A DNA stretch of 34,106 bases, from UHGV virus genome UHGV-0112930; one strand, given 5' to 3'. The DNA is from a virus. The notes beneath the pieces were generated by a model. The model searched no databases, was not told the DNA's origin, and saw only the letters and a list, made by a program, of their open reading frames with translations. A program made the position numbers and the translations under genes. Shown in pieces: positions 5,190 through 34,095 of this stretch (position 1 is the first letter of the stretch; each line of letters begins with the position of its first letter).

Positions 5190-5705
5190 TCAGAGGCCGA
5201 GGGCGTTGCGGTGCGCTTCCATCAGGTCCACACCGTCCACAATTTCCACCATGTTGATAAGGTCCACTTCATAGAGCACCTCACCATTGATGGTCAGCTT
5301 CGCGTAGCTGTTGGTACTGGTCACTTTGGTGGTGTTGCTTTCGCCCGTCTTCCACTCACCGGAATCCACTTCTTTATGACGTCCACGCACCACAAGCTCC
5401 ACGGCCTGCACTTCCGCGGTATCGTCACGCTGGATAGAGCCGGTAAAGCGCAACTGGATGCCATCCACCGTGGCTTTGCCCATCTGCTTAAACAGCAGCA
5501 GTTCAGTACCACCAATGGAAAATTCTGTGTCCAGCGCACTGTCATCAAGCCCCAGATCCACATCCACTGCCCCCGGCATTCCGCCGCCGCGATACTTCTC
5601 ATATTTGCGGGTGAATTTCGGCAGCGTCAGCGACTCAACGATCCCCTGCCAGTTGTTCCCGTCGTTAAACAGGTTCAGGTGTTTTAATTTGCGTGGTAAA
5701 GCCAT
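5190..5705 (-). CDS. FII: Tail tube protein (P2 gpFII-like)
   Basis: 171-aa ORF between sheath gene and E; translation recognised as P2 FII-like. Confidence 0.88.
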   Translation of the reverse strand: MALPRKLKHLNLFNDGNNWQGIVESLTLPKFTRKYEKYRGGGMPGAVDVDLGLDDSALDTEFSIGGTELLLFKQMGKATVDGIQLRFTGSIQRDDTAEVQAVELVVRGRHKEVDSGEWKTGESNTTKVTSTNSYAKLTINGEVLYEVDLINMVEIVDGVDLMEAHRNALGL

Positions 5706-5714
5706 GTTGTCCCC

Positions 5715-6887
5715 TTACGCGCTGACCTGGCTGGCGAAATTCACCAGGTACTGATCGGTGATGCGCTGACGCAACATCAGGTTTTCAAGTGGCGGCACTG
5801 GCGTGTAGTCGTAGTCGATGGTGAGTTTTCCGGCTTTCAGAGTGTCTTTGTCGTTCACCGACTCGTCCAGCCAGCAATCACCACCAATGAGATACCCCTG
5901 ACTGACCAGGCTGCGCATTTTGGCGCGGATGCCCTCGATAATGTCGCGCGCCAGCGACGGGTTCAGCGGTTTGTCCACTGCCCACATGTGCGCTTCTGCC
6001 ATCGTGTCCGTCAGCACCTGCGCCGTGCGGGTGTAGTTTTCGAAGGCAAAAAGCGGATCATCGCTCAGACAGCGGGAACCCCAGAAGCGGAAACCATCCT
6101 TGCGCACAAGCGTGGTGACGTCGTTCTGGTTAAGCAGTCCCGCATCGGTTGCCGGGTCCTGCAGATCCCAGAACACATCAGCAGAAATTCCGGTGACACC
6201 GTTCACGCCCACGTTGGACAGGCTTTTGTGCCATCCGGTCTGCTCATCAATTTTAGCGCGCAGACCGAGCGCACGAGCGGTGGCATATGCCGTTGCTTCG
6301 GCATTCAGCACCGTGTCCCAGCCAGTAAAGTCAGGCCAGATAAGCATCCCTTCGCGCTGGCTGAAGTTTTCACGGTAAGTGATCGCCTCCTGTACCGTCT
6401 TGCAGCCATACGCTGACAGGTAAGCAAACCCACGCAGGCTTTGCGCCACGCTCAGCAACTCAGTCGCAACGGCTTTGTTATCGTGACCAGGTACGCCGAG
6501 AATGCGCGGTTTAACGCCGAGCTGTGTCTGGGCAGATAACAGGGCTTTCATGCCTGTTTTTTTACCTTCAGCGGTCACTGCGCCGATGATATTGGTCGTG
6601 GTTTCTTCTTCCGTTTCCCCCTGCGGCACACGCACAACAACGGTCACGGGTTTTGCCTGGTCAGCGATGGCATCCAGCGAACGGGCCAGCGTGCCAGACT
6701 CACCCGCTTTACCGCTGGCGGTCAGCACATCAGTGATCAGCACGGGTTTATTAAGAGGAAACATTTTTGCATCGGCATCATCGCCCGTGCAGACCATACC
6801 CACGATGGCGGTGCTCACCGTGGTAATGGATCGGGTGCCTTCGTTGACTTCAACAACGCGCACCCCGTGGTGGTAATCCTGAGCCAT
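5715..6887 (-). CDS. FI: Contractile tail sheath protein (P2 gpFI-like)
   Basis: 390-aa ORF; translation recognised as myovirus sheath; first gene of the F operon. Confidence 0.9.
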
Positions 6888-6963
6888 AGTGGCGAACCTC
6901 CTGATTGGATTAGGCTTCGCCCTATGTTGAAGTGATTGTGCCTGACAAACAGCTAAGCGCAGT

Positions 6964-6981
6964 TGTACCGTTATTCACACA
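6964..6981 (-). promoter_or_regulatory. Ogr-type late activator box (TGT-N12-ACA) upstream of FI
   Basis: Perfect TGTACCGTTATTCACACA read in sequence; centre about 85 bp upstream of the FI start codon. Confidence 0.6.
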
Positions 6982-7029
6982 AAATGACGGTATTTGTTTA
7001 CTTGCAGGGATAATCAAAATAAAGCTGAT

Positions 7030-7602
7030 TCAGGGAGATTCATTGCTCTTATTTGCCGGAAATTTTCTATAAATGGTAGAAACGCCTACATCAAAAATCA
7101 GTGCAATACGCTGTCTTGATTCTCCGGCCTCGAGTAAACGCCCAATCTGTGCCCACTGTTCGGTGGTCAACTTAGGACGGCGTCCACCTACTCTGCCTTT
7201 GGCACGAGCTGCAGCCAGCCCTGCCCTGGTACGTTCAACTATCAGTTCGCGTTCCATTTCAGCCAGGGCACCCATGACATGAAAAAAGAAACGGCCCATT
7301 GGGGTGCTGGTATCAATACTGTCAGTCAGGCTTCGGAAATTCACGCCTCGCTGACGCAACTCTTCTATCAGCGTAACAAGATGCCGCATACTGCGCCCCA
7401 ACCTGTCCAGCTTCCAGACAACCAGCGTGTCTCCTGCCGATAGTGTCCTGAGCAGTTTTTTCAACCCTGGTCTGTCGGACTTAGTGCCACTGATTTTATC
7501 CTCAAAAATCCGCTCACATCCCGCGCAGTTCAGTGCATTACGTTGCAAATCGGTGTTCTGGTCATTTGTTGACACGCGTACATAGCCAATAAGCATGATC
7601 AT
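7030..7602 (-). CDS. Site-specific DNA invertase, serine recombinase of the Hin/Gin/Pin/Cin family
   Basis: 190-aa ORF MIMLIGYVRVSTNDQNTDLQRNAL...; resolvase-type N-terminal catalytic domain with the serine in YVRVSTNDQ and a C-terminal HTH; very similar to e14 Pin as remembered; next to a segment flanked by inverted hix/gix-like sites. Confidence 0.9.
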   Translation of the reverse strand: MIMLIGYVRVSTNDQNTDLQRNALNCAGCERIFEDKISGTKSDRPGLKKLLRTLSAGDTLVVWKLDRLGRSMRHLVTLIEELRQRGVNFRSLTDSIDTSTPMGRFFFHVMGALAEMERELIVERTRAGLAAARAKGRVGGRRPKLTTEQWAQIGRLLEAGESRQRIALIFDVGVSTIYRKFPANKSNESP

Positions 7603-7651
7603 CCCCCTGAATAAAAACCGGGGATGATGCCAGTTAGCCGTAATCGCTGCA

Positions 7652-7677
7652 TTTTCTTAAACGTTGGTTTGGGAGAA
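7652..7677. repeat. Left inversion crossover site (hix/gix-like 26-bp site)
   Basis: tttcttaaacgttggtttgggagaa; its reverse complement shares the 15-nt core CTTCTCCCAAACCAA with the right site. Half sites fit the TTCTxxxAAACC / GGTxTxxGAxAA pattern of Hin/Gin sites. Confidence 0.6.
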
Positions 7678-8157
7678 GGTTCGGCATTACCTGTTGGTGT
7701 ACCTGTTCCATGGCCTTCAGCCACTCCGCCGACAGGCTGGCTGAAATGCAACGGTGCAGCTTTTTCTGCTGAAGAATACCCGGAACTGGCAAAGGCTTAT
7801 CCGACAAATAAATTGCCTGATTTACGTGGTGAGTTTATTCGTGGCTGGGATGACGGGCGTGGAGCTGACAGTGGTCGGGGATTATTAAGCTTTCAAAAAG
7901 CCACTCTGGTTGAAAGTTTTGGTCTGGTCAGGTCACCAACCACTGGCTCTTATCGTCTGGTTACCAGACCGACAGAAACTGTTTCTGATAATACGTCTAA
8001 CTATATGACGACTGATTATGATTCCCGTGAAGGTTTATATTCCCCTGCAACAGCATACCCCTCTATCGAATTGCCACCAACTGGAGCAGGCGCAGGGGCT
8101 GGTTTTAGGGTTCGACCAAGGAATATTGCATTTAACTATATTGTGAGGGCTGCATAA
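7663..8157 (+). CDS. Silent alternative tail-fibre C-terminal cassette (expressed only after inversion, fused to H constant region)
   Basis: Open frame ...NVGLGEGSALPVGVPVPWPSATPPTGWLKCNGAAFSAEEYPELAKAYPTNKLPDLRGEFIRGWDDGRG..., a tail-collar-type fibre tip. It has no start codon or promoter of its own after the crossover site; the upstream part of the 7624 ORF is an artefact. Confidence 0.7.
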   Translation, partial: VGLGEGSALPVGVPVPWPSATPPTGWLKCNGAAFSAEEYPELAKAYPTNKLPDLRGEFIRGWDDGRGADSGRGLLSFQKATLVESFGLVRSPTTGSYRLVTRPTETVSDNTSNYMTTDYDSREGLYSPATAYPSIELPPTGAGAGAGFRVRPRNIAFNYIVRAA

Positions 8158-8759
8158 TGGATAACGCCATATTAAATAGCGAGATTATCGCCACCAAAGC
8201 AGGGAATATTACCGTCTATAACTATGATGGTGAAACTCGAGAATATATTTCCACTTCAAATGAATATCTTGCTGTTGGCGTCGGTATCCCTGCATATTCC
8301 TGTTTAGATGCCCCTGGCACACATAAGGCGGGTTATGCTATCTGCCGTTCGATGGATTTAAACTCATGGGAATATGTGCCAGACCATCGCGGTGAAATCG
8401 TCTATAACACCGAAACGGGAGACGCCAAAGAAATCACAACTCCGGGTGATTACCCCGAAAAAACAACCACTATCGCCCCGTTAACGCCATACGATAAATG
8501 GGATGGTGAGAAATGGGTGACGGATACCGAGGCACAGCATAGCGCCGCAGTAGACGCGGCAGAAGCACAACGTCAGTCACTGATTGATACTGCAATGGCT
8601 TCCATTAGTCTGATTCAACTGAAATTGCAGGCCGGACGGAAGTTGACGCAGGCAGAAACAACCCGACTTAACGCCGTGCTGGATTACATTGACGCGGTGA
8701 CGGTAACAGATACCAGCACCGCGCCGGATGTCATCTGGCCTGAACTGCCGGAGGCGTAG
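8157..8759 (+). CDS. Tail fibre assembly chaperone, alternative copy (partner of the silent cassette)
   Basis: 200-aa ORF directly following the silent fibre cassette; C-terminal ...LDYIDAVTVTDTSTAPDVIWPELP mirrors the C-terminus of the minus-strand Tfa. Confidence 0.8.
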   Translation: MDNAILNSEIIATKAGNITVYNYDGETREYISTSNEYLAVGVGIPAYSCLDAPGTHKAGYAICRSMDLNSWEYVPDHRGEIVYNTETGDAKEITTPGDYPEKTTTIAPLTPYDKWDGEKWVTDTEAQHSAAVDAAEAQRQSLIDTAMASISLIQLKLQAGRKLTQAETTRLNAVLDYIDAVTVTDTSTAPDVIWPELPEA

Positions 8760-9174
8760 GCCATTCAATATCTGGAGCACTGGAAGTATCGACCAGTTCC
8801 AGTGCGTCCAGATAATCCAACCACAAATTATATTGCGCCAGTTCCTCACCTTTCAGACGACCAATAGCGGCTTTACCGGGCCATTGCTTACTGTTCATGT
8901 GTTCGTTGGCCTGATTAAGCAATAATTGTCTTTCTGATTCTGCCTGTTGAATAAGTTCTTCATGTGATGGTTGAGGTATTTCAGCCCATGTGGGAAAACC
9001 ATTTACCCCTGCAACTCGGATTTTCCCTTGTGGCGGTTTCGCCATATATTTTACAGAAATGTTATCAGGAATATCTAATGCATCAGCGGGCCATGTTCCA
9101 TTTACTTCATAAGTATTTTTTAAATTAACAGCATAAAATGCATTTTCCGAAGGGGAATAAATATATTGATTCAT
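8731..9174 (-). CDS. G: Tail fibre assembly chaperone (P2 gpG-like), active orientation
   Basis: 147-aa ORF immediately downstream of H; C-terminal ...LWLDYLDALELVDTSSAPDIEWPTPP; 3' end overlaps the convergent alternative copy by about 29 nt. Confidence 0.85.
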   Translation of the reverse strand: MNQYIYSPSENAFYAVNLKNTYEVNGTWPADALDIPDNISVKYMAKPPQGKIRVAGVNGFPTWAEIPQPSHEELIQQAESERQLLLNQANEHMNSKQWPGKAAIGRLKGEELAQYNLWLDYLDALELVDTSSAPDIEWPTPPAVQAR

Positions 9175-9175
9175 A

Positions 9176-10573
9176 TTATCTTCCTATTGCAATAATCATA
9201 GTTCCATACAAACCATTTCCGGTTGATACTTTTAAGGTTACTGATGTCCTTGTTGTCGTGTACCCCATAAGTTTAAAGGTCGGAGCAGCCGTTAATGTGC
9301 CATCAGACCATAAGGCACTAACAGCAAGTGCACCTGAAGGAAATGCAATAGGGAAATTACCAGTAGTTCCGTTAGTGTCCGCCCCATAAACATTCATCGA
9401 AAACATTTGGACAATATGACCACTTGGTAACTGAAACCAGTTTTTGCCAGATGGGAATGCAGACATATCTGGTATCTGATTTTCCCCTGTTCCCACATTT
9501 CGTTTTGCCGCTTCTCCCAAACCAAGGTATGCGAGAAGACCAGCTACATCCTTTCCACTCAAATTAGTCAGCGTATTGTCCAGCGGTTGTTTACCTGCCA
9601 GCGCATTAAGCATTGTCGTGGCAAAGTTCGGATCATTCCCCAGCGCCGCCGCCAGTTCGTTCAGTGTATCTAGGGCCGCAGGTGCAGAACCCACCATTCC
9701 TGCAATCGCCGATTTCACAAATGCCGTAGTGGCAATCTGTGTATTGTTGACCGACTGCGCCGCCGTGGGGGCTGTTGGCGTTCCGGTGAGTGCCGGACTC
9801 GACAGCGGCGCTTTCAGTGCCAGCGCATTGTTAATGGTGGTACTGAATTTCGGATCATTGTTAATGGCTACGGCTATTTCTTTCAGCGTGTCCAGCGTGG
9901 CTGGCGCACCATTAATAAGAGCCGTCAGTGCCGCCTGAACAAATGCGGTGGTCGCAAGCTGCGTGGTATTATTCCCCGCCGCTGGCGTTGGCGCTTTGGG
10001 GGTTCCGGTAAACGTCGGACTTTCTTTGGGTGCATACTGTGAATGCGGGTCCGGTGCGGCAAGATGTTTTGCCATCAGGTCATCCACGTACACCTTCAGC
10101 TCCAGTGCCTTGTCATCCACATACTTGCGGGTTGCCAGCACTACAGCAGGGTCGATTTTCAGGGTGATATTGTCCGTACTGCTGGTAATCAGCACCATGC
10201 GCACAGTCTGGGTGCGCCCGCTGCCTTCAGCCAGTTGCGGCTTATAGCTTTCCGGGCAGTTGCCCACGGCAATCAATGCCCCGGACTCATCAAACAGGCC
10301 CACTTCACGTATCCACCAACCGCCCTCGTTTTCAGGGATCACCTGTTCAGCAATAATCTGGCTGCTGTTCTGCGGGTCGATATAAAGCATATTCAGCGCA
10401 GCCCGGCGTTTCTCATTTACCAGTGCCGTCTGCTTTGCGTCCGGCGTTGGCAATACTCCGCCGCCATCGCCCACCGCCATATGGGTAATTTTTAGCGGCA
10501 CACCGAGCGCGGCGGCGCTGGCAAGTTTCGCCGCGCCAATATCCGTCAGCAGGGTATAAAATTTTGTGCTCAT
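9176..10573 (-). CDS. H: Tail fibre protein (P2 gpH-like), constant N-terminal region plus currently expressed variable C-terminus
   Basis: 465-aa ORF; N-terminus MSTKFYTLLTDIGAAKLASAAALGVPLKITHMAVGDGGG is P2 H-like, followed by Ala/Thr-rich repeats. The crossover site lies in-frame at ...AYLGLGEAAKRN. Confidence 0.9.
   Translation of the reverse strand: MSTKFYTLLTDIGAAKLASAAALGVPLKITHMAVGDGGGVLPTPDAKQTALVNEKRRAALNMLYIDPQNSSQIIAEQVIPENEGGWWIREVGLFDESGALIAVGNCPESYKPQLAEGSGRTQTVRMVLITSSTDNITLKIDPAVVLATRKYVDDKALELKVYVDDLMAKHLAAPDPHSQYAPKESPTFTGTPKAPTPAAGNNTTQLATTAFVQAALTALINGAPATLDTLKEIAVAINNDPKFSTTINNALALKAPLSSPALTGTPTAPTAAQSVNNTQIATTAFVKSAIAGMVGSAPAALDTLNELAAALGNDPNFATTMLNALAGKQPLDNTLTNLSGKDVAGLLAYLGLGEAAKRNVGTGENQIPDMSAFPSGKNWFQLPSGHIVQMFSMNVYGADTNGTTGNFPIAFPSGALAVSALWSDGTLTAAPTFKLMGYTTTRTSVTLKVSTGNGLYGTMIIAIGR
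9512..9537. repeat. Right inversion crossover site (hix/gix-like 26-bp site)
   Basis: ttctcccaaaccaaggtatgcgagaa, inverted relative to 7652..7677 with an identical 15-nt core. Confidence 0.6.
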
Positions 10574-11175
10574 GGATTCACTCTCATTGTGTCAATAACA
10601 TGGACCGCCCCGCCTTCATGCGCGGTGCCACCGGAAATAATCGTTTCGTTGATATACGGATAGATCGTGATTTCTTCGCCAAGATAGCTGGCGGCTCCCA
10701 CCCAGTGCGGGCCGCTGGTCTGCAGATTGATGGACATGCCGATCATGTGGCGGCTACATGGTTTGGCATCGCTTATCAGTCGCTCAAGTTCCAGATAGGT
10801 ATCTTCAGTGATGCCCTGGTCCTGCACGCCGATATCCAGGCGAAACGTGCCCGGTGCCTCTCCGGTCTGCCACCACTCAATAATGCGGATCAGAAAGCCG
10901 AACGGCTCCACCACCCGCCGCACGGCACTGGTGGTCCCTTTATGCTGATGAATATAAAAAGCATCCTTCACCACCTGGCGTTTGACGCTTTCTGTCCAGC
11001 CCTCGTCCCAGCGATCCACAGAGAACGCCCAGGCGAGATAAGGCAGGAAACTGACCGGACAGGTTGCCGGATTCCACAAGTCACGCTGCGGCACCTGCAG
11101 ATCAGAAATCCCGCTGCAGGTTTGCGCCAGTCGGCGCTCCAGTGGTGTTGAACCCGGTGGCAGCAGACTATTCAT
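10570..11175 (-). CDS. I: Baseplate protein I (P2 gpI-like)
   Basis: 201-aa ORF overlapping H start by 4 nt; position between J and H. Confidence 0.88.
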   Translation of the reverse strand: MNSLLPPGSTPLERRLAQTCSGISDLQVPQRDLWNPATCPVSFLPYLAWAFSVDRWDEGWTESVKRQVVKDAFYIHQHKGTTSAVRRVVEPFGFLIRIIEWWQTGEAPGTFRLDIGVQDQGITEDTYLELERLISDAKPCSRHMIGMSINLQTSGPHWVGAASYLGEEITIYPYINETIISGGTAHEGGAVHVIDTMRVNP

Positions 11176-14189: not shown

Positions 14190-14460
14190 GTTTCAGTTCC
14201 TCTATCCGGTGTTGTCGTTGTCTCAGCAGCGCGCTGGTCTGTTCTGCTTCGGCATAGAGCCGCGCCTGCTCCCGGTTATTGGTTTCAGTCAGAATGGACA
14301 GGCTGATAAGCTGGCTGTTGCTCTTTGCCAGTGCCTGGCTTTTGCTCTGCAGCTCGTCTGCCTGCGTGCTAATGGTCTGGCTGGCATCAGCCAGCCGCCA
14401 CGTCTGCCAGCCCAGCGCCGCCAGTAATAACGCCAGCATAACCAGCAGCAACCGGTTCAT
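14032..14460 (-). CDS. lysB: Inner-membrane spanin LysB (Rz-like i-spanin)
   Basis: 142-aa ORF with N-terminal transmembrane helix MNRLLLVMLALLLAALGW followed by a charged coiled-coil region. Confidence 0.8.
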   Translation of the reverse strand: MNRLLLVMLALLLAALGWQTWRLADASQTISTQADELQSKSQALAKSNSQLISLSILTETNNREQARLYAEAEQTSALLRQRQHRIEELKRENEDLRRWADTPLPADIIRLRKRPAFTGGAAYRQWLSASDAVSTGSDSAAH

Positions 14461-14834
14461 GCTGCTACCTGTTGCGCCATCTGATTACGGGTGATCCAGA
14501 AGGCAATAACGGTCAGTAGATAAAAGACCAGGGTAATAGCCCACCCCGTCCAGGCGAGACTTACGACAATCAGCAATCGCATCACCCAGCTGATAAATAC
14601 GTTTTCTTTTCGGGTAATGGTCTTAAGCAAAGATGCCCTCAACTCTTGCCAGAGCGGGCCATTCTTAATTAACGCAGCCAGTGCTACCGGAATTACCGCC
14701 CATGTCAGTAAACAGGCTACCCAAACGCCGGACGCTGCCAGTACCGGAAAAATCCCCTGCGGATACACCATTGCTGCGATTAACAGCGCCATCCATAACA
14801 TCAGAAACAGCCCGCTGATTAATTTCTTTTTCAT
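14457..14834 (-). CDS. lysA: LysA-like membrane protein (lysis timing, putative antiholin)
   Basis: Multi-pass hydrophobic protein in the P2 lysA position; start taken at MKKKLISG... rather than the extended ORF start at 14906. Confidence 0.6.
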   Translation of the reverse strand: MKKKLISGLFLMLWMALLIAAMVYPQGIFPVLAASGVWVACLLTWAVIPVALAALIKNGPLWQELRASLLKTITRKENVFISWVMRLLIVVSLAWTGWAITLVFYLLTVIAFWITRNQMAQQVAA

Positions 14835-14835
14835 T

Positions 14836-15348
14836 TCAGTTTGCTCCCTGTAAACACCAGGCCATCTCCCGCGCACGGCGGTTATCCAGCCCCTGATTAA
14901 ACACACCTTTCACATAAACCCAGCGCGGCAACTGTCGGCACGCATCCGCCCAGCGCCGCTGATTGAGTAATTTCACCAGCGTGGAACTGCAGGCATTGCC
15001 CGTTCCCACGTTGAAGGCAAACGACACTGCAGCGTCATACACCTTCTGCGGCGGCTGTTGCTTTACACACCTTTCCAGCGCCCGCTCCACACGCAGCACG
15101 TTGGAGATCAGCCCTTCCGCTGCCTGTCGTTCCGTAATGGTTTTGCCCGGGATGACGCCCGATGTATTACCAATGCCGTCGGTCCAGACACCCGCGCTGC
15201 ACTGATACGGCTGCAGACGACAGCCTTCGTAATCAGCAATCAGTTTCAGCCCCTCCACGGAGGTGTGAAGCTGCTGAAAACCCGGCAGCGTGGCAGCAAT
15301 AGCCAGCACGGTCCCGACAAGGCAGCGTTTAACGATTGATGGATTCAT
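14836..15348 (-). CDS. K: Endolysin, lysozyme family with N-terminal SAR-like signal-anchor (P2 K position)
   Basis: 170-aa ORF; weakly hydrophobic Gly/Ala-rich N-terminus VKRCLVGTVLAIAATLPGF, then a lysozyme-like E-x8-C/D-x5-T region EGCRLQPYQCSAGVWTDGIGNT. Confidence 0.8.
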   Translation of the reverse strand: MNPSIVKRCLVGTVLAIAATLPGFQQLHTSVEGLKLIADYEGCRLQPYQCSAGVWTDGIGNTSGVIPGKTITERQAAEGLISNVLRVERALERCVKQQPPQKVYDAAVSFAFNVGTGNACSSTLVKLLNQRRWADACRQLPRWVYVKGVFNQGLDNRRAREMAWCLQGAN

Positions 15349-21868: not shown

Positions 21869-23617
21869 TTAGAATGCGGATTTGATTTTTTTCTCAAATG
21901 CCTCATATACAGGCTGGTTCATTTGGGCCGTTGCAGTAATAAGCTGTGAAAAATTTGATATACAATCTTTAACTTTTGTAGGACTTTTCAACCCTCCTTC
22001 AACCAGTGCAGGCAGCAACTGATTACTTAAAGCCAGACACACATCTACAATTGGCTCCCAAATACTTTCAGCCTGAGAAGGAGAGACTGTACTTCCAAAC
22101 GAAACTCTAAATAAATTAGGAACGGGACGGCCCAAAAAGTTTTCCAAACATTCGGCAATAGCCGAGCACAATAAAGGTATTGAACCACGATGCCTGAGAT
22201 ATCCCAATTGAGCGCTATCATTTTTTGAAAGAGTATCTTTCTTTGCCAAAGCTATTTTCTTGTTCTCAATACACCGCATGAGAGAATACGCACAAACAAT
22301 ATGTGAAGCTTTTGTACTGTCATTAAAAATCTTAGAATAATGAGAGTCATTAGTCCAAATTGCAGATCGCTGATTATAAGCTACCGTCGGCTCTCCATGG
22401 AAACTCATCAAAGCTTGACCAACAGTATAAGAAGGCAGTAGATTAGTTTTTCGACGAATGACACTTTCAGCACCTCCTCGTCTTCCTCCATCATATTCAG
22501 CATCAGGAATAGAAGCAAATTCATTTTTAAGTCGTTTTTGAATTTTGTCTGTGCTTCTGAAATCAGATGCTTCAACTTTATTCTGACTGTTATTATACTG
22601 AATTATATTCTGAATTAGATCAGCATCCGCATCTTTGACTTTTATAAATCTAGCTTGGACTTTAACTGATTCTGGAGGTAATCGTGGCAGCGTTCCTAAA
22701 GCACCTGTTGTCTGTGCTCCATTAACTATTGACATCCCTCTGATTTCAAGATTCTTTGATGCTTCATTGAATTTATATTCATGAACCAAAACAGTTACGC
22801 CATTATTGTATGCCCAAAATTCTGATGCTGAATTTTCCGCACTGTTACGGATACCATTATTGATATTTGAATCAGATGACCTTGATCCAAGGTAGTCTCT
22901 AACATTTGCTGAAAATATTTTTAATTTATGCTTTTTGTACGCTCTAGCTAAATCTCTTCCCTGAATGGTAGTACAGAATGCATTCCAATTATCTCCTTTT
23001 ATTTCGTAGCCACCATCACTGACCTTAATATTGAAAATCTCATCAACCAGTATTGGTGATAGTGATTCACTATACCATTCCGTCAACTTTTCAGTGCCTA
23101 CCTCCATTGCATGCACTTGTATTTTAGCATCTTCAAAATCATGTTTTAAAATAGTTGTTGCTGTCTGCTGAACCGTAATTAGCTCTTGAGCCACATTTGT
23201 TGAAGATGGTAAGTTATGAACATACCAAACGTACAGAGTTTTAATTTTCCCTTGTTTGATTGATGTCCGTATCTGTTGAGCAGAAGATTTTATTCTATCG
23301 GGTACATCATGCAAATCTCTTTGCAGAAGCCATGCTAAAGCAATATTAAGATCACTCGCTTTATTTGCTGGAGCTTCCTGTCTATCTTTGCTTGAGAAAT
23401 AGCATTGAGCAAGTACAGCAAATTCTTCTTCTTCATTAATATACACAAGGTCACATTTCTTATCGTCATGTCCATCGGTAATGGACTCTGCTGCGACACT
23501 ATCAATGTCATCAATTCTAAAATGTAATGCTAACGCAAACAAAGCCAGTCCATTATCACCATACGATTTCAAATCTTCTCTTGCAGAATAGGCTTGGTTC
23601 CAGGTACTCATTATCAC
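21869..23617 (-). CDS. Large uncharacterised cargo protein (582 aa), candidate anti-phage / abortive-infection-type protein
   Basis: Long uninterrupted ORF in AT-rich DNA, unlike the GC-rich phage core, inserted between the Q terminator and the cos site. No P2 structural counterpart at this position. Contains NVRDYLG, EFWAYNNGVT and IVNGAQTT motifs. Confidence 0.7.
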   Translation of the reverse strand: MIMSTWNQAYSAREDLKSYGDNGLALFALALHFRIDDIDSVAAESITDGHDDKKCDLVYINEEEEFAVLAQCYFSSKDRQEAPANKASDLNIALAWLLQRDLHDVPDRIKSSAQQIRTSIKQGKIKTLYVWYVHNLPSSTNVAQELITVQQTATTILKHDFEDAKIQVHAMEVGTEKLTEWYSESLSPILVDEIFNIKVSDGGYEIKGDNWNAFCTTIQGRDLARAYKKHKLKIFSANVRDYLGSRSSDSNINNGIRNSAENSASEFWAYNNGVTVLVHEYKFNEASKNLEIRGMSIVNGAQTTGALGTLPRLPPESVKVQARFIKVKDADADLIQNIIQYNNSQNKVEASDFRSTDKIQKRLKNEFASIPDAEYDGGRRGGAESVIRRKTNLLPSYTVGQALMSFHGEPTVAYNQRSAIWTNDSHYSKIFNDSTKASHIVCAYSLMRCIENKKIALAKKDTLSKNDSAQLGYLRHRGSIPLLCSAIAECLENFLGRPVPNLFRVSFGSTVSPSQAESIWEPIVDVCLALSNQLLPALVEGGLKSPTKVKDCISNFSQLITATAQMNQPVYEAFEKKIKSAF

Positions 23618-23886: not shown

Positions 23887-24564
23887 CTAGAACGTGACAG
23901 CCTTGTCAAAGCCAGAAATAATTGTATAAGAAATAGACGAGTTATCAGCCTTGTTCACTTTGAACTTGGCACCTTTGTAAGCGATAACATCACTTCCCTT
24001 AGAATCTACAGAAAAATCTGTTGTAAATGCTGCACGAGCCATATCGTTTGCAAATTCACGATAGGTGAACTTCATTACACCGCCTGCATTTCCATTGTAT
24101 TCGATAGTCTTAACCAATGAATTACTCACTCGACACAGCCCATCAGGAACACGTTTGATAGAAATTTCTGATGCAGTATAAGAAGTGCCATTTGGCGGTG
24201 ATATCTCATTTTTTGCAGCATCGTAGCTAACATAATCAACATAGTTACCGATTTGCCCATAGAGATTTTTTAACGCAACAGCTTGAGGGTTATGATAATT
24301 GCGGTAAATTCCATTCCCCTCACTGCAATATGTACCAGCAGCGATAGAAGACAATGCACCATTAGCCGCACCAAGTTCTAGTACGTCCGTTTTAAATCCA
24401 GTAGCAGATGTGATAATGGGATCGCCCATGTAGGCGGTAGCACTTTGCCCAATAGCTGGCTTCACCACTTCAATAGCAGTGATATTTCGGTTAGAAGCAT
24501 GTGGCACGCAACCAGTTAGGATTACAGCAAGAGATATTGGTAACGCTACATTATTAATTTTCAT
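23887..24564 (-). CDS. Lipoprotein of unknown function (225 aa), phage cargo
   Basis: Start taken at MKINNVALPISLAVILTGC (lipobox LTGC) rather than the extended ORF start at 24618, which would run through an upstream terminator hairpin. AT-rich gene between cos and the SOS module. Confidence 0.7.
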   Translation of the reverse strand: MKINNVALPISLAVILTGCVPHASNRNITAIEVVKPAIGQSATAYMGDPIITSATGFKTDVLELGAANGALSSIAAGTYCSEGNGIYRNYHNPQAVALKNLYGQIGNYVDYVSYDAAKNEISPPNGTSYTASEISIKRVPDGLCRVSNSLVKTIEYNGNAGGVMKFTYREFANDMARAAFTTDFSVDSKGSDVIAYKGAKFKVNKADNSSISYTIISGFDKAVTF

Positions 24565-24598
24565 TTTTAGCCTATTATTCTTTTCTTGACAAAAAACA

Positions 24599-24623
24599 AG
24601 GCGATATCTGATTGACATCGCCT
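24599..24623 (-). terminator. Rho-independent terminator downstream of the dinI-like gene
   Basis: Hairpin aggcgat-(11 nt loop)-atcgcct followed on the minus strand by TGTTTTTT. Confidence 0.5.
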
Positions 24624-24677: not shown

Positions 24678-24911
24678 TCAATGCAGCCAGCTGTCGTCTT
24701 CCCACACCTTCTGCAAAATTTTCATCACTTGTTTTCTTTCTTCGTCCAGTTGCAGTCCGGTCAGTTCCACACCGTTAGAGCTACCTTTACGGATACGGAT
24801 TACCGTTTTGGGATACAGGGGGCGCAGATTGCGGTAAAGCTCGGATTCAAGGGCGTCCAGGGTAGACTGGCTAATCTTCTGCTCTTTATCGATCATTATT
24901 TCAATGCGCAT
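24678..24911 (-). CDS. DinI-like damage-inducible protein
   Basis: MRIEIMIDKEQKISQSTLDALESELYRNLRPLYPKTVIRIRKGSSNGVELTGLQLDEERKQVMKILQKVWEDDSWLH resembles E. coli DinI (MRIEVTIAK...ISEILQETWESADDWF). Start at the internal ATG, preceded by GAGGTG. Confidence 0.85.
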   Translation of the reverse strand: MRIEIMIDKEQKISQSTLDALESELYRNLRPLYPKTVIRIRKGSSNGVELTGLQLDEERKQVMKILQKVWEDDSWLH

Positions 24912-24921
24912 AAAAGTCACC

Positions 24922-25110
24922 TCAGCTGATGACATCCATTGAGCGGTTGTATTCGTGGCTTCTGATTTTTGCCATGAGTTCATCTGTCAGTTCAGAAACC
25001 CACTGCAGAGCCAGCCCCTTCTCTTCATCACTACACTCACTAGCCGCTACAAGCTTAAGAAAAAAATCAATGCGCTGAAGCTTCAAAGACTCCAAAAAAT
25101 AGTCCTGCAT
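24922..25110 (-). CDS. Small protein (62 aa) co-transcribed with the dinI-like gene, candidate Tum-like antirepressor
   Basis: ORF with strong SD AGGAGGA 5 nt upstream; stop 10 nt before the dinI-like start; LexA box in its promoter. Confidence 0.6.
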   Translation of the reverse strand: MQDYFLESLKLQRIDFFLKLVAASECSDEEKGLALQWVSELTDELMAKIRSHEYNRSMDVIS

Positions 25111-25264: not shown

Positions 25265-27679
25265 TTAATACAGGTTCCGCCACTTATCATCTTCCTGCAA
25301 ACGCTGGTTCCGATAGAAGATACGCAGGCCTGCTCCTGACGGAATACTGCCGCCGCGAAGGAGTAAATCGACCTCTTTCTCGCTGCCATCAAATCCTCTG
25401 GACTTCAGTTCATAGACGAGCTGCTGTCGTTGATGGTCTGTAATTCGCTGTTTGTAGTCTCTACGCCGTTTCGGTTTCACCAGGCGTAACCTTGCAGCCA
25501 GTTCCCGGCGCTCTTTTTTGTTCATACAGTGCAGGTAATCGTGCAACTCCTTGTCATCCATGCGGGTGATATCCGTTCTGGTATCCCCATCAGCTGATTT
25601 GTCTTTCCCTTGTTGGTACAAATTTTCAGCAAGGGGACAGTTATTGCCACGAGTCCAAGGGGCGCAAGCGCCCTGGTCGGCTACCGCCTCCTGAACGTCA
25701 ACGGCCTTACGAACCATTTTCCACTTCACTGCATGAGTGCAGATCTTGCCCTCTGCAATGGGTGACCAGATGCCATAAATACGAATGCCGTGATCGCCAT
25801 AGGCGGTCGGCTCTTCGTTGATTTCATAAGCGGTTCTGATAAGGTGATATTTACGGGGAACCAGTACGCCGCCCTGCTTCATGATGTAGGTGGCAAAACA
25901 ACCAGCATCAGCAGCAGCCAGGATGGCATCAAGGCGCGGGTCATCCAGTATCGGCGCACCTGCTTTTTTGTCACCCTGTTGCCTTGCCGCCTGACCAGCC
26001 AGCAAGCGAAGTTCACGGTAAGCCTGACGTCCCGGAATACCAAAGAAGCGGAACTGCTGAACACGATGCAGAGACGCCCAGGCATTAACGTATTCGGCGT
26101 TATCACGCAGGGATTTACCCGTTTCCTTGCTGATCTCGCCAGCCAGACCACGCCCGTCAATGTTCTTACTGATGTATTTCGCGATGTAGCTTGTCGGTGT
26201 TCCTTTGCGCGGGTTAATCAGCTCAGACTTAAAGCGTGGCCCCGTGTTGTTGCCCAGCTCCTCGCGGTCTACACGGATGGCAAACTTACGCAGTAATGCA
26301 GTGATGGCGCGGCGGTCTTTTTTACGCATGAAGCACATGAGATGCCAGTGCACAGTACCGTCATGGTGCGGCTCAGCCACCCGCACGCCATACCAGCGCA
26401 ACCCGGTTTTGTGCATTGCCTTACGAAATGCAGCAAACATGCCGACCATATAATCGCTGCTTTGTCTTACCGTCGCATTTGTCCAGGTCGGGTTGGGTCT
26501 GCCGTTGTTGAGCGTGGAATGGAAACGTGACGGACAGGTGATAGTGTAGAAAACGGCGCAGTCACCGCGCATTTCCGCGATAAGCTCCAGACCTTTAACA
26601 CAGGCCATCATCTCATTGCGGCGATGCGCAGGGTTGCTGCTGCTGGCGTTTACCACATCCTCCATGTCCAGCGTGTCGCCGTCTTCGTTCACCAGTTCAT
26701 GAGAACGGAAAAACTCCAGCGACTTACGGCGCTGCTCACGTTTATGCATCACGGCTTCATAGCTGACATAGGGAGATGCTTTTTTGCTGACCAGGCAGAC
26801 AGCACGCAACTGCTCTTCCCGCCATTCGCAACGCATCTTCCATAATTTCCGATACCACCAGTCGGCGCACAACATACGCGCCAGCGAACCCGGAATGAGT
26901 TCATAGGGCACGGGTTTACGGCGGTTTCTTTTCCGACGGAGTTGCTCAAACGCAGGTGGGATGACATCCAGACGCAGGGTTTCCGCCGCCACCTTTTCCC
27001 ATGTCTTGCGGATTTCTTCTGGCTTAACGTCATCGGTGGCATACAAATCGCCACAAGCTGCATCAAGGCACATGCTCATATGCGCAGCTACCAGGGTGGA
27101 CAGGCGTTTCACCTGATCCTGACTCATTTCAGGCAGGATCAGCAGGCCCTCCAGCCCTTGATGGCTTGCCATAAAACGGAAAGAAGCAGACAGCTGACTG
27201 TCACGTACACAATCCAGTCGCTCCAGACATGGCTTAATCGTCTCACGCAAATAGCGGGAATAAGCCTTTGGCCTGCCCAGGCTGCTGAAGTATTCGATAC
27301 GTTGCATCAGCGGCTTGCTAATATGGGTGGGCTGGGCGCTGACGTCCGCCAGAATGACCATGTCCGGGTTAAAACGCTGCTGTTCATGCGCCAGCTTTGC
27401 CCGGCTAATGAGCTTATCCTGCTCCATTTCGCGCTGGACAGGATCACGAGATTCATTAAAGAAATAACGCTCCCAGACCTGCTCACTCAGTGCATCGCGG
27501 CGCAGCTGTTCCTGCTCATTATCGGCAGCGTACAAAGTGATCAGGTTTAAAAGTGCAGACTCCGGAGCAACTTCCGCCGGGTCCAGATAAGGGTTAATGG
27601 CCTTTTTCGGGCCGTTCCATGAAAATGCTGCAGCGGCCTCGTTAAAGCCGCTAGAGTTGCTCATATCGTCATGACTCAT
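25265..27679 (-). CDS. A: Replication initiation endonuclease A (P2/186 gpA-like rolling-circle initiator)
   Basis: 804-aa ORF with HUH-type motif [11 protein letters not shown] and tyrosine pair [10 protein letters not shown]; translation recognised as P2/186 A-like. Confidence 0.9.
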
Positions 27680-28533
27680 ACACGCACCTCGTACACAGCA
27701 GAACTATCCACGCCACACGAAGGATCAAATCCCACCCAGCAGCGCGCCCCGGAAACAGCAATGATTTCTGTTGCAGATTTACTCTCGCCAGCCGACACGC
27801 CGATGCTGCGTTTTGCCTTGATGTAGTGGTGAGTGAAATTTCGATACAGCGAACGGATCAGGGATGTGTCACTGTTAGAAACAATGACTGGATGACCTTC
27901 TGATGATCGATATTCAAGAACAGATGCCAGGTGATACTGGTCATCTTCAGTGAAGCCGTCAGTGTGATAGCCGGAAAACGTACCGTCATAAGGCGGATCG
28001 CAATACACCACATCCCCCACCTGCAGCATCGCCAGCGTTTCATCAAAGCTGGCGCAGATAAACGTTGCTCGCTGGGCTTTCTCTGCAAATGCGCGAATTT
28101 CTTTTTCAGGGAAATACGGATTTTTATAATTACCGTATGGAATGTTGAAATGCCCGCTCTTGTTATAACGACATAACCCACGGTAACCATGACGATTGAG
28201 ATACAGGAAATATACCGCTTTCATGAAATCAGTAATTTCAGTGGAGTAATTAAACTCCTGCCTTATGTTGTAATAAGCCACCTCCCTGTTTGCTTCCTCA
28301 AATAAAGCTCTGGCACGAGATATAAACGCCTCGCAATCAGCAGCAACCTTTTTATAGAGGTTGATTAAATCAGGATTAATATCCGCAACAAGATAGCTGG
28401 GGTAATCCGTCTCCATCATCACAGCACAGGAACCCGCGAAAGGTTCAACCAGTCGCGGGCCAGCAGGAAGATGTTTTTTCAGTTCGGACATAATGGCAGT
28501 TTTATTACCCGCCCATTTCAGGATGGTGCTCAT
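27676..28533 (-). CDS. DNA adenine methyltransferase (Dam-like, N6-adenine MTase)
   Basis: Motifs [32 protein letters not shown]; strong resemblance to E. coli Dam. Start taken at [11 protein letters not shown]; stop overlaps the A start by 4 nt. Confidence 0.85.
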
Positions 28534-28832
28534 ACAGCACCTCCTGCAATAACATATCCTAAAGCTTCTAATGGGGTTAATGGGCGAATTGATAGCATCA
28601 CCCATTGTTCTGAAACTGCCATGACGTCATTAACCGGAAGCACATGAGAGATAACAGCGGCCCATTCCCTACCCGTAAATACGCCATGCTTCCATTCGCA
28701 AAGAGAAAGAACATCACCAACTTTATAACCACGATCGTCTTTACGAAGTTCAGCCGTCTTTTGACCTGCAACCACAGCGTTGAAATACTTAGGTGCAATT
28801 TTTAATTGATGGATACGCACTGCCCTTGTCAT
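28530..28832 (-). CDS. DUF3850 / ASCH-like small protein
   Basis: [47 protein letters not shown] matches the remembered DUF3850 pattern; start taken at the internal ATG. Confidence 0.6.
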
Positions 28833-30119: not shown

Positions 30120-30638
30120 TCACAGCAAACCGAATGAAGCACCGAGGCCAGTCACGGTATCAACTGCACTCGCCATCGCAGGATTAGCCTGTAAACGGGC
30201 CTGCAATGAAACAGCAGCCAGCGCCATCAGTCGTGTTACAGAGTTAATGCTGCTGATAGCATCACGACGACCGGCACTAGTTTTTACATCACCAGATACC
30301 GCACCTGCTGCAACACGTCCGATCTCTGCAGTTGCGCTCATGACGTAATGCGGCAGTTTCTCTTTTGCAACCTCATTAATCGGTACACATGGCAGGCAGT
30401 GAATCTGTGCCAGAAAACCATCTACCAGCGTTGAATCTTCAGTCAGATCGGTAAGCAGCCAGATTTCTGGTGCGGTTAATAAATGAGGTTGAGATGGGTT
30501 CAGCTTGTTCCGCAGAATCTGCACATTCATGCCAGCACGTTCTGCCAGTTGCACCAGATTGTGGCGCAGTGCGAATGCACGACAGGCTTCATCAAAATGT
30601 GGATGTTTGGAAACTTGGTAATCAAACATGGTTTTCAA
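30120..30638 (-). CDS. cII: CII-like lysogeny-establishment regulator (phage 186 CII family)
   Basis: [48 protein letters not shown]... resembles 186 CII as remembered; second gene of the lytic early operon after apl. Confidence 0.7.
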
Positions 30639-30693
30639 CTCCGAACTTATCGCAAAATCGAACTCAGCGTCTTATTGCGAAAATAGACGTCTA

Positions 30694-30897
30694 TTAAGCA
30701 GACAAAGCATCAACAGTCAGAGCAGCCAGGTTAATCATTACCTTTTCACGTTTTTTGTCTTTACGAAGACGATGACGAGGTAGTCGGCCATCAGCCAACA
30801 TGTCGTTAATCGTATCAATAGAAAGGCCTGTCAGTTCGCTATAACGTTCGATTGTGACATGTGGTGTATTCAGAGTAATTGAAATGTTAGGTGTCAT
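30694..30897 (-). CDS. apl: Apl/Cox-like excisionase-repressor (small HTH protein)
   Basis: 67-aa ORF, first gene of the early lytic operon, divergent from cI; basic C-terminus. Confidence 0.65.
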
Positions 30898-31042
30898 AAG
30901 GCAACATTCCTTCTAGATATGGCTTGTGGCGAGCCGTTGTTTGTCGTGATTAGTAGTGAAGGCTCCAAAAGAACACTTCTGGTTCAACTTTAAGATCGCT
31001 TTTGGAATCTGTCAACGAATTTTGGATTTCTTTGGAGGACTC

Positions 31043-31612
31043 GTGGATTTCAATAGCGGCGGTAAGAAAGCCATAGAACGTTTAGTTGAAGCATATGGGT
31101 TCGGTACCCGTCAGGCTCTCTGTGATCATTTAGGTGTTTCTAAGAGCACCATGGCAACGCGCTATATGCGTGATATTTTTCCAGCAGATTGGGTAATCCA
31201 GTGCGCCCTTGAAACGGGCACCTCGCTTAATTGGCTAACAACAGGGCATGGTTCAAAGCAAGCATCAGCAAATACAAATACTATAGAAGTAGAAAAATAT
31301 TTATTGTCTGATGGAGCATTGCAGAAAGACGGTTTTTATATTTTTGATAAGGGATTTCTACCCTCTACGTTTAAAAAACCTTTTGTCATCACAGATAACA
31401 ATTCTGAATTTATTTGTGATAAAGAATTTGATGATATACGTGATGGTAAATGGGTAATAAGTATTGATGGCGAAATAACGATCCGTGACATTACTCGTTT
31501 ACCCGGTGGAAGAATCTTCGTCGAGGGTGGAAACAGAGCCTTCGAATGCAAGATAGAAGACATTGAAATAATTGGTAAAATTATAAGTTTAACAGTCAAG
31601 TATGTTAAATAG
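31043..31612 (+). CDS. cI: CI immunity repressor (186 CI-like)
   Basis: ...ERLVEAYGFGTRQALCDHLGVSKSTMATRYMRDIFPADWVIQCALETGTSLNWLTTGHG... resembles 186 CI as remembered. Start proposed at GTG 31043, preceded by GGAGGA; the ORF-track ATG at 30956 would leave no room for operators. Confidence 0.75.
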   Translation: MDFNSGGKKAIERLVEAYGFGTRQALCDHLGVSKSTMATRYMRDIFPADWVIQCALETGTSLNWLTTGHGSKQASANTNTIEVEKYLLSDGALQKDGFYIFDKGFLPSTFKKPFVITDNNSEFICDKEFDDIRDGKWVISIDGEITIRDITRLPGGRIFVEGGNRAFECKIEDIEIIGKIISLTVKYVK

Positions 31613-31819: not shown

Positions 31820-32007
31820 CTTTTGCTTTTATATCTGCGTCTAAAATAAAAATGAGCCGCAGGTTAACCGCAAAAGTTACATGCTCACATAGCAAAAAGA
31901 ATAGCCAACTTCATTATGGCTTCAGTGAGATGTATGGTCGTAGGATTTCATACATTGACACTGGTTATACATACAGTAAAAATGCTCTCTACTGGAGGGC
32001 ATCTTTT

Positions 32008-33039
32008 ATGGCAGTACGAAAACTCACCACAGGGAAATGGCTTTGCGAATGTTACCCCGCCGGACGAAGTGGGCGTCGTGTGCGTAAACAATTCGCCACC
32101 AAAGGCGAAGCTCTGGCTTTTGAGCGTCACACGATGGAAGAAACCGAATCAAAGCCCTGGCTGGGCGAATCAGTGAATCGTCGAACCCTGAAAGACGTGG
32201 TTGAGCTATGGTTCAAACTACATGGTAAATCTCTGACTGCTGGACAGCATGTCTATGACAAATTGCTGCTGATGGTTGACGCCCTAGGCAATCCTCTTGC
32301 AACCGATCTCACCTCTAAAATGTTTGCCCACTATCGAGATAAACGCCTGACAGGCGAGATCTACTTCAGCGAGAAATGGAAGAAAGGAGCAAGCCCGGTC
32401 ACCATTAACCTGGAGCAAAGCTATCTAAGTAGTGTTTTTAGCGAACTATCCCGTCTGGGCGCATGGTCGTATCCGAACCCACTGGAGAACATGCGATAAT
32501 TCACCATCGCAGAAAAAGAGATGGCATGGCTTACCCATGAGCAGATTGTTGAATTACTGGCTGATTGCAAACGTCAGGACCCAATTCTGGCACTGGTAGT
32601 TAAGATATGCTTAAGCACAGGCGCACGCTGGCGTGAAGCCGTAAATCTTACCCGCTCACAGGTGACTAAATACCGAATTACCTTTGTCAGAACGAAGGGG
32701 AAGAAAAACAGAAGCATCCCTATCAGTAAAGAGCTTTACGAAGAGATCATGGCGCTTGATGGGTTCAATTTCTTCACAGACTGCTATTTTCAATTTTTAT
32801 CCGTGATGGAAAAAACGTCTATCGTGCTCCCTCGCGGTCAACTGACACACGTTCTGCGCCATACGTTTGCGGCGCATTTCATGATGTCGGGTGGAAATAT
32901 CCTTGCTTTGCAAAAAATCCTCGGACATCACGACATAAAAATGACCATGCGTTACGCACATCTGGCACCGGATCACCTGGAAACTGCATTACGGTTTAAT
33001 CCGCTGGCAACACTACCAACATCAACAGCAACTGTTTGA
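32008..33039 (+). pseudogene. int: Tyrosine integrase (P2/186 family) interrupted by an in-frame TAA
   Basis: N-terminal part MAVRKLTTGKWLCECYPAGRSGRRVRKQFATKGEALAFERH... ends at TAA 32497..32499. The same frame continues seven codons later with MAWLTHEQIVELL... through a catalytic region with ...HVLRHTFAAHFMMSGGNILALQKILGHHDIKMTMRYAHL. Confidence 0.7.
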
Positions 33040-34056: not shown

Positions 34057-34077
34057 GTCATTTCCTCTCTCTGCAAT

Positions 34078-34095
34078 TGTGTACAAATGTACACA
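34078..34095. promoter_or_regulatory. Perfect palindromic candidate operator upstream of the TetR-family gene
   Basis: TGTGTACA-AA-TGTACACA, 22 bp upstream of the TetR start codon. Confidence 0.4.

Follow-up and report, generated by a model that had tools for sequence, protein, structure and literature searches.

The invertible segments of phages Mu (G, with the invertase Gin) and P1 (C, with Cin) combine a constant N-terminal fibre part with two alternative C-termini, each accompanied by a chaperone, and are bounded by 26-bp sites. These segments are about 3 kb and 4.2 kb long, respectively. A Hin-family invertase, Fin, is reportedly encoded on the P2-like prophage Fels-2 of Salmonella, and this enzyme is known mainly for its action in trans on the flagellar H segment. 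In the cryptic prophage e14 of E. coli K-12, the P segment with its invertase PinE spans 1,797 bp (PMC12529663); e14 is lambdoid and defective, the constant part of StfP being short and stfE a pseudogene. Phase variation of a P2-like locus homologous to the one described here is already known, as it has been measured in EPEC E2348/69. Both orientations coexist there in clonal cultures, and at NC_011601 2977580-2979467 the forward orientation accounted for 93 ± 4% (Goldberg et al., 2014, PMC4272514, Table S1). A survey without site-level or mechanistic analysis had likewise recorded invertases in the Z/fun hotspot of P2-like phages (Egorov et al., 2024, bioRxiv 10.1101/2024.10.15.618418).

The module analysed here is found in the virus genome UHGV-0112930, a stretch of 34,106 nt that is called the window below and that represents a P2/186-like prophage of E. 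coli. The module is an ordinary, previously described member of the Pin/Gin/Cin family, and it is very probable that it functions as a two-state, invertase-driven tail-fibre switch of this type. It is flanked by the H/chaperone genes on one side and by the sheath gene FI on the other, which is exactly the position of the P2 hotspot. P2 itself carries fun(Z) at this place and has no invertase, while a search of the 34,106-nt window for a Fun(Z) homologue gave none. The module thus sits in place of the Z/fun locus, as had been proposed in a preliminary description of this DNA.

The longest inverted repeat within positions 5500-11000 is formed by 7652-7678 and 9511-9537, and it contains two recombination sites of 26 bp. 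The left, pix-like site (7652-7677, centre dinucleotide 7664-7665) lies 55 bp from the start codon of the invertase gene and reads TTCTCCCAAACCAACGTTTAAGAAAA as the reverse complement, while the right site (9512-9537, centre dinucleotide 9524-9525) lies within gene H and reads TTCTCCCAAACCAAGGTATGCGAGAA. They have a core of 15 nt in common, CTTCTCCCAAACCAA, and can be written as TTCTCCCAAACC-AA-CGTTTAAGAAAA and TTCTCCCAAACC-AA-GGTATGCGAGAA, with AA at the centre of both once they are read with their half-sites in the same orientation. The invertible segment between the crossover dinucleotides covers positions 7666-9523 and measures 1,860 bp from centre to centre. These values agree with the inverted 26-bp sites, the 15-nt core and the segment of about 1.86 kb given in the preliminary description, and so does the predicted position of the crossover within the LGLGE codons of H: the right site spans the codons L-L-A-Y-L-G-L-G-E, and its central dinucleotide is found in the CTT codon for the first leucine of LGLGE. 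When aligned with known sites from the reference records, as had been suggested, the window sites match pix, cix and gix, and the same site pattern also picks these out in the e14, P1 and Mu records. The sites of e14 are the closest (1 and 5 differences in 26 positions), the left site differing at a single position from the e14 site beside pinE. A terminator-like hairpin is present between the left site and the start of the invertase gene.

Exactly two copies of the 14-mer TTCTCCCAAACCAA are present in the 34-kb window, and no further match with up to two mismatches was found in the whole window, where shuffled sequences averaged 0.25 matches. A shufflon or another multiple-inversion system was considered and rejected, since there are only two half-site matches at this threshold in the whole window and no third site. 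The switch has two states.

The constant N-terminal part of H lies outside the segment (9524-10573, minus strand), comprises about 350 residues and contains the Pfam Phage_tail_fib N-terminal domain (E 5e-65). It is collinear with, and 96-97% identical to, its counterpart in relatives carrying either orientation of the segment. The variable C-terminal part that is expressed in the present orientation (9176-9523, minus strand) contains the Pfam domain Gp53-like_C at residues 382-465 of H. The alternative, silent tip is encoded on the plus strand (7666-8157) by a reading frame whose ATG start (7624) lies beyond the segment, and it matches the Pfam domain Collar (E 1.4e-15) and is 59% identical to StfE of e14. 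One chaperone gene is found directly 3' of each tip, and both products belong to Caudo_TAP. The chaperone of the silent tip (8157-8759, plus strand, 200 aa, E 1.7e-31) is 90% identical to TfaE of e14, while that of the expressed tip (8731-9174, minus strand, 147 aa, E 1.4e-33) is 67% identical to TfaP in its C-terminal half. The two chaperone genes are convergent and overlap by 29 nt. An overlap of about this length had been noted in the preliminary description and likened to Mu; the overlap is there, but the arrangement is that of e14, where tfaP and tfaE also overlap by 29 nt, whereas U and U' of Mu do not overlap and lie 28 nt apart.

When the segment is inverted in silico, H stays in frame and changes from 465 aa with the gp53-like tip to 513 aa with the Collar tip, both reading frames being open to a stop codon. 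The tip following LGLGE then changes from 111 to 159 residues, so that the lengths of 115 and 160 given earlier were near approximations. Both forms are annotated in public RefSeq genomes, in accordance with the proposal that inversion exchanges the C-terminus of H together with the adjoining chaperone. Gp53-like_C and Collar are unrelated domains, and this is consistent with different adsorption specificities of the two orientations. By analogy with the known systems, the two tips would be expected to give different host ranges.

The invertase reading frame (7030-7602, minus strand) encodes 190 aa, but the start used in RefSeq relatives is the third codon, giving a gene at 7030-7596 and a protein of 188 aa. 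Pfam finds the Resolvase domain at residues 5-137 (E 2e-53) and HTH_7 at residues 140-183 (E 1.5e-15). In NCBIfam no specific family was found for the invertase, every match being far under the cut-off, and the fibre and chaperone proteins gave no match at all. The protein is 85% identical to PinE, 78% to Cin and 73% to Gin, and it matches the sequence of the Gin crystal structure 3UJ3 with an E-value of 8e-93, compared to 1.5e-34 for gamma-delta resolvase. This supports its original assignment as a serine invertase of the Pin/Gin family. The catalytic residue is Ser9, which is found in a YVRVSTNDQ motif that aligns with Ser9 of Gin. Six residues that contact Fis or the enhancer are kept in invertases alone, namely K47, K/R48, K/R51, Q151, R154 and L155 in Hin numbering (PMC3798978). 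The counterparts of Hin K47, R48, K51, Q151, R154 and L155 are here K, K, R, Q, R and L, the first three, in helix B, being placed via a one-residue offset from the catalytic serine and the last three by alignment to the Hin chain 1HCR. The reading frame is intact and retains the catalytic as well as the Fis-contact residues, and in its domains, its sequence relationship and these residues the protein agrees with the Fis/enhancer-dependent Hin/Gin/Cin/Pin group.

Comparison of genomes has shown that inversion at exactly these sites occurred recently in near-identical prophages. The orientation of the window is found in one complete E. coli genome, while the predicted flipped form is found in five, as one unbroken match with 100% coverage and 99.1-99.8% identity. 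In the sister isolates OkiPb01682 and OkiPb01698 the prophage occupies the same place in the chromosome, and 33,700 of 33,700 bases are identical once the segment has been flipped. Every choice of breakpoints that gives zero mismatches between these two falls within the common core of the sites. Similarly, phage 500465-1 and phage KP12 follow the window collinearly as far as 7678 and again from 9511 onwards, whereas the stretch in between is inverted. The repeats thus are the crossover sites, as had been assumed, and both orientations are found together with an intact invertase reading frame. The DNA-flipping switch is real and probably active.

Between the repeats 15-16 bases are identical, and the comparison locates the exchange no more finely than to this stretch. 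General RecA-dependent homologous recombination at the short repeats might therefore be imagined to have caused the inversion between strains. Such a length is, however, below what RecA-dependent recombination usually needs. The repeats are moreover bona fide invertase sites, with the half-sites and centre of the family, beside an intact invertase, and the same event has recurred in many lineages. A RecA route is thus extremely unlikely, and the inversion is best explained as site-specific.

In the window itself only a single orientation is present, and the integrase gene is cut short by an in-frame TAA at 32497-32499, a codon that reads AAA in the closest relative. The prophage might thus be decaying, with the segment left as a frozen relic without any meaningful rate of inversion. 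This seems very unlikely, since the invertase, the two sites and the two cassettes are all intact, and since the region containing the whole module (6900-10600) is 99.8% identical to copies that demonstrably have flipped. In addition, the EPEC locus with measured switching still flips in a much more degraded prophage remnant. The stop codon may nevertheless mean that the switch in this particular genome never reaches a virion.

For a functional switch the following mechanism can be proposed. H is transcribed on the minus strand together with the remaining late tail genes, and approximately 350 codons at its start are outside the segment. The segment consists of two promoterless cassettes placed face to face, each encoding a C-terminal tip of H and its own assembly chaperone. 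The adjoining serine invertase would bind both inverted 26-bp sites and cleave them at the central 2 bp (AA/TT), and subunit rotation would then exchange the strands. If the system works like Hin, Gin and Cin, the reaction would be confined to a Fis-bound enhancer complex on supercoiled DNA. In the state seen in the window, the constant part of H is joined to the gp53-like tip, accompanied by the 147-aa chaperone; in the other state it is joined to the Collar-domain tip, accompanied by the 200-aa TfaE-like chaperone. A population of lysogens would then give particles with two receptor specificities.

A putative recombinational (Fis) enhancer is located at the 5' end of the invertase gene (7507-7578), in the stretch that corresponds by alignment to the enhancer annotated for P1 (cin nt 19-90). 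The enhancer of P1 is likewise placed at the 5' end of its invertase gene. The identity in this region is 78% to P1, 88% to e14 and 72% to Mu. However, the region is coding sequence, and conservation at third codon positions is no higher than in the remainder of the aligned 200 nt. A search of the window, pinE, cin and gin for two 15-bp motifs of the form G-N13-C, spaced by about 48 bp, found a single one conserved in all four (alignment position 71), while a second candidate 49 bp away, at position 22, is not conserved in cin. With a single conserved motif the enhancer stays putative. Dependence on Fis and an enhancer would be expected from the related systems.

The neighbouring invertase is presumably the catalyst of the flip. 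Related invertases complement each other in trans, though; the e14 P segment, for example, is inverted by PinQ, the invertase of Qin (Kirigo et al., 2025, PMC12529663). The flip could accordingly be catalysed mainly by another Pin-family invertase in the host, for instance that of e14, Qin, Rac or another P2-like prophage. The sites in the window are near-identical to the pix sites of e14, and related modules are found in 3,045 of 5,426 complete E. coli genomes, at a median of two places per genome. On the other hand, the adjoining reading frame is intact and retains every catalytic and regulatory residue tested, and its distance to its own site gives the same geometry as for gin and pinE. Action in cis and in trans can also coexist. 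Catalysis mainly in trans is therefore considered unlikely, and the adjoining invertase remains the preferred catalyst.

It is further reported that the chimera StfE2, which arises when the e14 P segment is inverted, blocks adsorption of T2 (PMC12529663). A switch of the present kind might then mainly serve the host, one H variant or tip being made in the lysogen and blocking adsorption of other phages. The silent tip and its chaperone are 59% and 90% identical to StfE and TfaE, respectively, and with a truncated integrase the production of virions may be lost. H is, however, a late gene in a P2-like structural gene set that is otherwise complete, and the promoter scan identified no promoter for expression of H in the lysogen, promoter-like sites being no more numerous than in shuffled sequences. 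A role mainly for the host is for these reasons judged improbable. Because the truncated integrase may prevent excision, the intact switch could also be kept because it benefits the host, either through an StfE2 analogue that blocks competing phages or with the tail genes serving as a switchable tailocin. This too is given little probability; its only support is the homology to e14 StfE/TfaE and the integrase stop codon. A switch of receptor specificity in phage particles remains the favoured function.

The discovery value of the locus is small, and its worth lies in correct annotation. The fragments annotated as 'phage tail protein' beside the invertase are alternative C-termini of H and not separate genes. 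Different assemblies of this prophage will also show a 1.86-kb inversion relative to each other, and this is a biological difference and not an assembly error. As such modules are very common, they are a frequent confounder when strains are compared, but phage or tailocin engineering can also draw on them for receptor-binding tips that come paired with chaperones.

When it comes to the known systems, e14 has both the closest invertase and the closest sites. The layout is also the same, with tip, chaperone, convergent chaperone and tip followed by the invertase 54-55 bp from its site, and the segments are of similar length. The two differ in their carriers, the window having a full-length H in a P2/186-like gene cluster, and the gp53-like tip is only about 32% identical to the C-terminus of StfP. 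The EPEC E2348/69 P2-like locus (Goldberg et al., 2014, PMC4272514) shares with the window both the position adjoining the sheath gene and the order of tip, 603-bp chaperone gene, 441-bp chaperone gene, gp53-like tip, invertase and sheath. Its cassette is 88-94% identical to the window segment while its invertase is only 78% identical, and the EPEC prophage is a remnant without the constant part of H. A second P2-like locus in EPEC has three repeats and four states, unlike the two sites of the window. As for Mu and P1, Gin and Cin are 73-78% identical to the window invertase, but the segments of these phages are larger, the 3' end of cin in P1 is at cixL, and between their tips and chaperones and those of the window there is a distant relationship at most.

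Each element that the preliminary description had placed in the tail-fibre region was recovered in 7030-10573 by ORF calls, a search for inverted repeats and Pfam. The serine recombinase gene (7030-7596/7602, minus strand; 188/190 aa) matches Resolvase (E 2e-53) and HTH_7 (E 1.5e-15). It is followed by a promoterless ORF with a Collar domain (7624-8157, plus strand), which constitutes the silent tip, and by two Caudo_TAP chaperone genes, one TfaE-like of 200 aa (8157-8759, plus strand) and one convergent to it of 147 aa (8731-9174, minus strand), overlapping by 29 nt. The product of the tail-fibre gene H (9176-10573, minus strand) is 465 aa long and has a Phage_tail_fib domain at its N-terminus and a Gp53-like domain at its C-terminus. 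A short leader (MMPVSRNRCIFLNVGLGE, 7624-7665, plus strand) starts at an ATG at 7624, outside the invertible segment, and since it reads in frame with whichever tip is silent, annotation pipelines report that tip as a protein in its own right, a 'phage tail protein' or a 'gp53-like domain-containing protein'. A hairpin resembling a terminator, with a T run after it, lies between the left site and the start codon of the invertase (7616-7635, minus strand) and might stop read-through from the H operon ahead of the invertase gene.

The longest inverted repeat of the region is made up of two 26-bp sites, the left at 7652-7677 and the right, within H, at 9512-9537. They share the 14-mer TTCTCCCAAACCAA, of which the 34-kb window contains exactly two copies. 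No further match with up to two mismatches was found in the whole window, while shuffled sequences gave on average 0.25 at this tolerance, and the system is therefore one of two sites and two states. Written in a common half-site orientation the left site is TTCTCCCAAACC-AA-CGTTTAAGAAAA and the right TTCTCCCAAACC-AA-GGTATGCGAGAA; the inner half-sites are thus identical, while the outer ones differ. The centres of the sites (7664-7665 and 9524-9525) are 1,860 bp apart. Read directly, the right site corresponds to the codons L-L-A-Y-L-G-L-G-E of H, and its centre lies within CTT, the first Leu of LGLGE. When 7666-9523 was reverse-complemented in silico, H stayed open and in frame. The gp53-like tip, 111 residues following LGLGE, was exchanged for the Collar tip of 159, which lengthened H from 465 to 513 aa, and the TfaE-like chaperone came to lie directly downstream of H.

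The window displays one orientation, and the evidence for inversion comes from comparing near-identical prophages. The arrangement of the window across 6900-10600 is found end to end, at 99.8% identity, in one complete E. coli genome, OkiPb01698. The predicted flipped arrangement is matched end to end and in a single piece by five complete E. coli genomes (CI5, OkiPb01682, 2014C-3097, 2015C-3905, and Z0117EC0117) at 99.1-99.8% identity. The phages 500465-1 and KP12 are also collinear with the window on either side of the segment, up to 7678 and from 9511, and inverted between these positions. Both orientations thus occur across E. coli genomes and phages. That the switch is a frozen relic in this particular genome is unlikely, as copies that have flipped share 99.8% identity with the window over 6900-10600, which takes in the whole module. 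The sister strains OkiPb01682 and OkiPb01698 have a common source, bovine faeces from Okinawa, and carry the prophage at the identical chromosomal site beside ybjL. Between their loci, each of 33,700 bases, there are 1,376 differences as deposited and none after one interval is reverse-complemented. All breakpoint choices that give zero mismatches fall inside the common core of the two sites, confirming the repeats as the crossover sites. Recent inversion has thus taken place at exactly the two sites of the window, in near-identical prophages. RecA-mediated exchange between the repeats is very unlikely, as the match is 15-16 nt long and is located at genuine invertase sites.

Both the enzyme and the sites belong to the Pin/Gin/Cin family. 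The invertase shares 85% of its residues with PinE of e14, 78% with Cin of P1, and 73% with Gin of Mu, and matches the Gin crystal-structure sequence with E 8e-93, compared with E 1.5e-34 for gamma-delta resolvase. It contains the catalytic serine motif YVRVSTNDQ. A degenerate pattern that matches the two sites also picks out gix, cix, and pix in the Mu, P1, and e14 records, and between the invertase-proximal site and the e14 site beside pinE one of 26 positions differs. The distance from site to invertase start codon is 55 bp, while it is 54 bp for gin and pinE. By analogy with the family, Ser9 would cleave at the central dinucleotide and strands would be exchanged by subunit rotation, probably on supercoiled DNA and under the control of an enhancer to which Fis is bound. 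Residues whose conservation is confined to the Fis/enhancer-dependent invertases are, in Hin, K47, K/R48, and K/R51 of helix B, and Q151, R154, and L155 of the DNA-binding domain (McLean et al., PMC3798978). At the equivalent positions the enzyme of the window has K, K, R, Q, R, and L. The Cin enhancer is annotated in the P1 record at cin nucleotides 19-90; the stretch aligned with it, 7507-7578, shows 78% identity with P1, 88% with e14, and 72% with Mu. This stretch is coding, and conservation at its third codon positions is not above that of the remainder of the 200 aligned nt. Two Fis sites were sought in it and could not be convincingly delineated. The probable Fis dependence of the switch thus rests on the contact residues of the protein and on family precedent. 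It is also plausible that another Pin-family invertase flips the segment in trans, as PinQ does for e14 (PMC12529663), and this is compatible with action of the enzyme in cis.

As in related systems, only the tip-chaperone pair fused to the constant part of H is expected to be expressed, and the two tips may differ in receptor specificity. A benefit to the host, with one H variant acting like the e14 chimera StfE2, is speculative.

The window is a complete P2/186-like prophage. The module is preceded by D, U, tape measure, E/E', tube, and sheath, and followed by I, J, W, V, lysis genes, head genes, terminase, portal, a cargo hotspot, replication genes, CII, CI, and integrase. The CII (CP76) and CI repressor genes (30120-31612) form a pair that is the mark of a lysogeny module of 186 type, as opposed to P2 type. 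The hotspot, at the old/tin position of P2, encodes a 582-aa AIPR/AbiU-like protein (21869-23617, minus strand; Pfam AIPR E 2e-34, PADLOC AbiU E 1e-34) adjoined by a 243-aa ORF without family match (23887-24618, minus strand), and likely holds abortive-infection defence cargo. A DinI-like protein (24678-24983, minus strand) and a Dam-type N6-adenine methyltransferase (27676-28605, minus strand; Pfam MethyltransfD12 E 1e-76) are also encoded. In the lysis-gene region about 425 bp (14418-14843) do not align to the OkiPb01698 prophage, which is elsewhere 97-98% identical, suggesting a local mosaic replacement. The TetR-family gene at the end of the window (33520-34086, minus strand) corresponds to host rcdA, annotated beside the integrase in strain E9, while the other prophage end in the Okinawa strains adjoins ybjL (5921-7606 of their loci), suggesting insertion between ybjL and rcdA.

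An in-frame TAA at 32497-32499 interrupts the integrase gene (31852-33039); in the closest relative, E. coli E9, this codon is AAA (Lys) and the integrase is intact, with 343 aa. The truncation removes the catalytic domain, and unless the TAA is a sequencing error, the prophage may have lost the ability to excise. In that event the host-range function would be moot for this lineage.

The switch itself is already known, and its preliminary description was correct apart from small corrections. In P2 the G-FI interval is occupied by fun(Z), while here it is filled by the extra cassette and the invertase. As no Fun(Z) homologue is found in the window and homologues of FI and FII flank the module, the proposed replacement of the Z/fun locus is right by position. 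Among P2-like phages a DNA invertase is often encoded in the Z/fun hotspot, with adjacent genes inverted (Egorov et al., 2024, bioRxiv 10.1101/2024.10.15.618418), and Cartapus, 500465-1, and pro483 are examples of deposited phages whose records annotate a DNA invertase at this position. Sequence related to the module is found in 3,045 of 5,426 complete E. coli genomes. In records named Klebsiella phage (the Kp48xx-2 series and KP12) the invertase and the constant part of H are about 96% identical to the window. KP12, the only such record compared, has the segment in the opposite orientation; it is filed under Vequintavirinae, is described as a partial clone, and looks mislabelled or mixed. At two loci in P2-like prophages of EPEC E2348/69, coexisting orientations have been detected and quantified; NC_011601 2977580-2979467, the simple locus of the two, was 93 ± 4% forward (Goldberg et al., 2014, PMC4272514). 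Its gene order beside the sheath gene is that of the window; its cassette shows 88-94% identity with the invertible segment of the window, and the two invertases are 78% identical. Of the characterised systems the P segment of e14 is the nearest. The TfaE-like chaperone is 90% identical to TfaE and the StfE-type tip 59% to its e14 counterpart, and the other chaperone shares 67% identity with TfaP over its C-terminal half. The chaperone overlap of 29 nt stands, but its likeness to Mu does not: U and U' of Mu are 28 nt apart, while tfaP and tfaE of e14 overlap by the same 29 nt.
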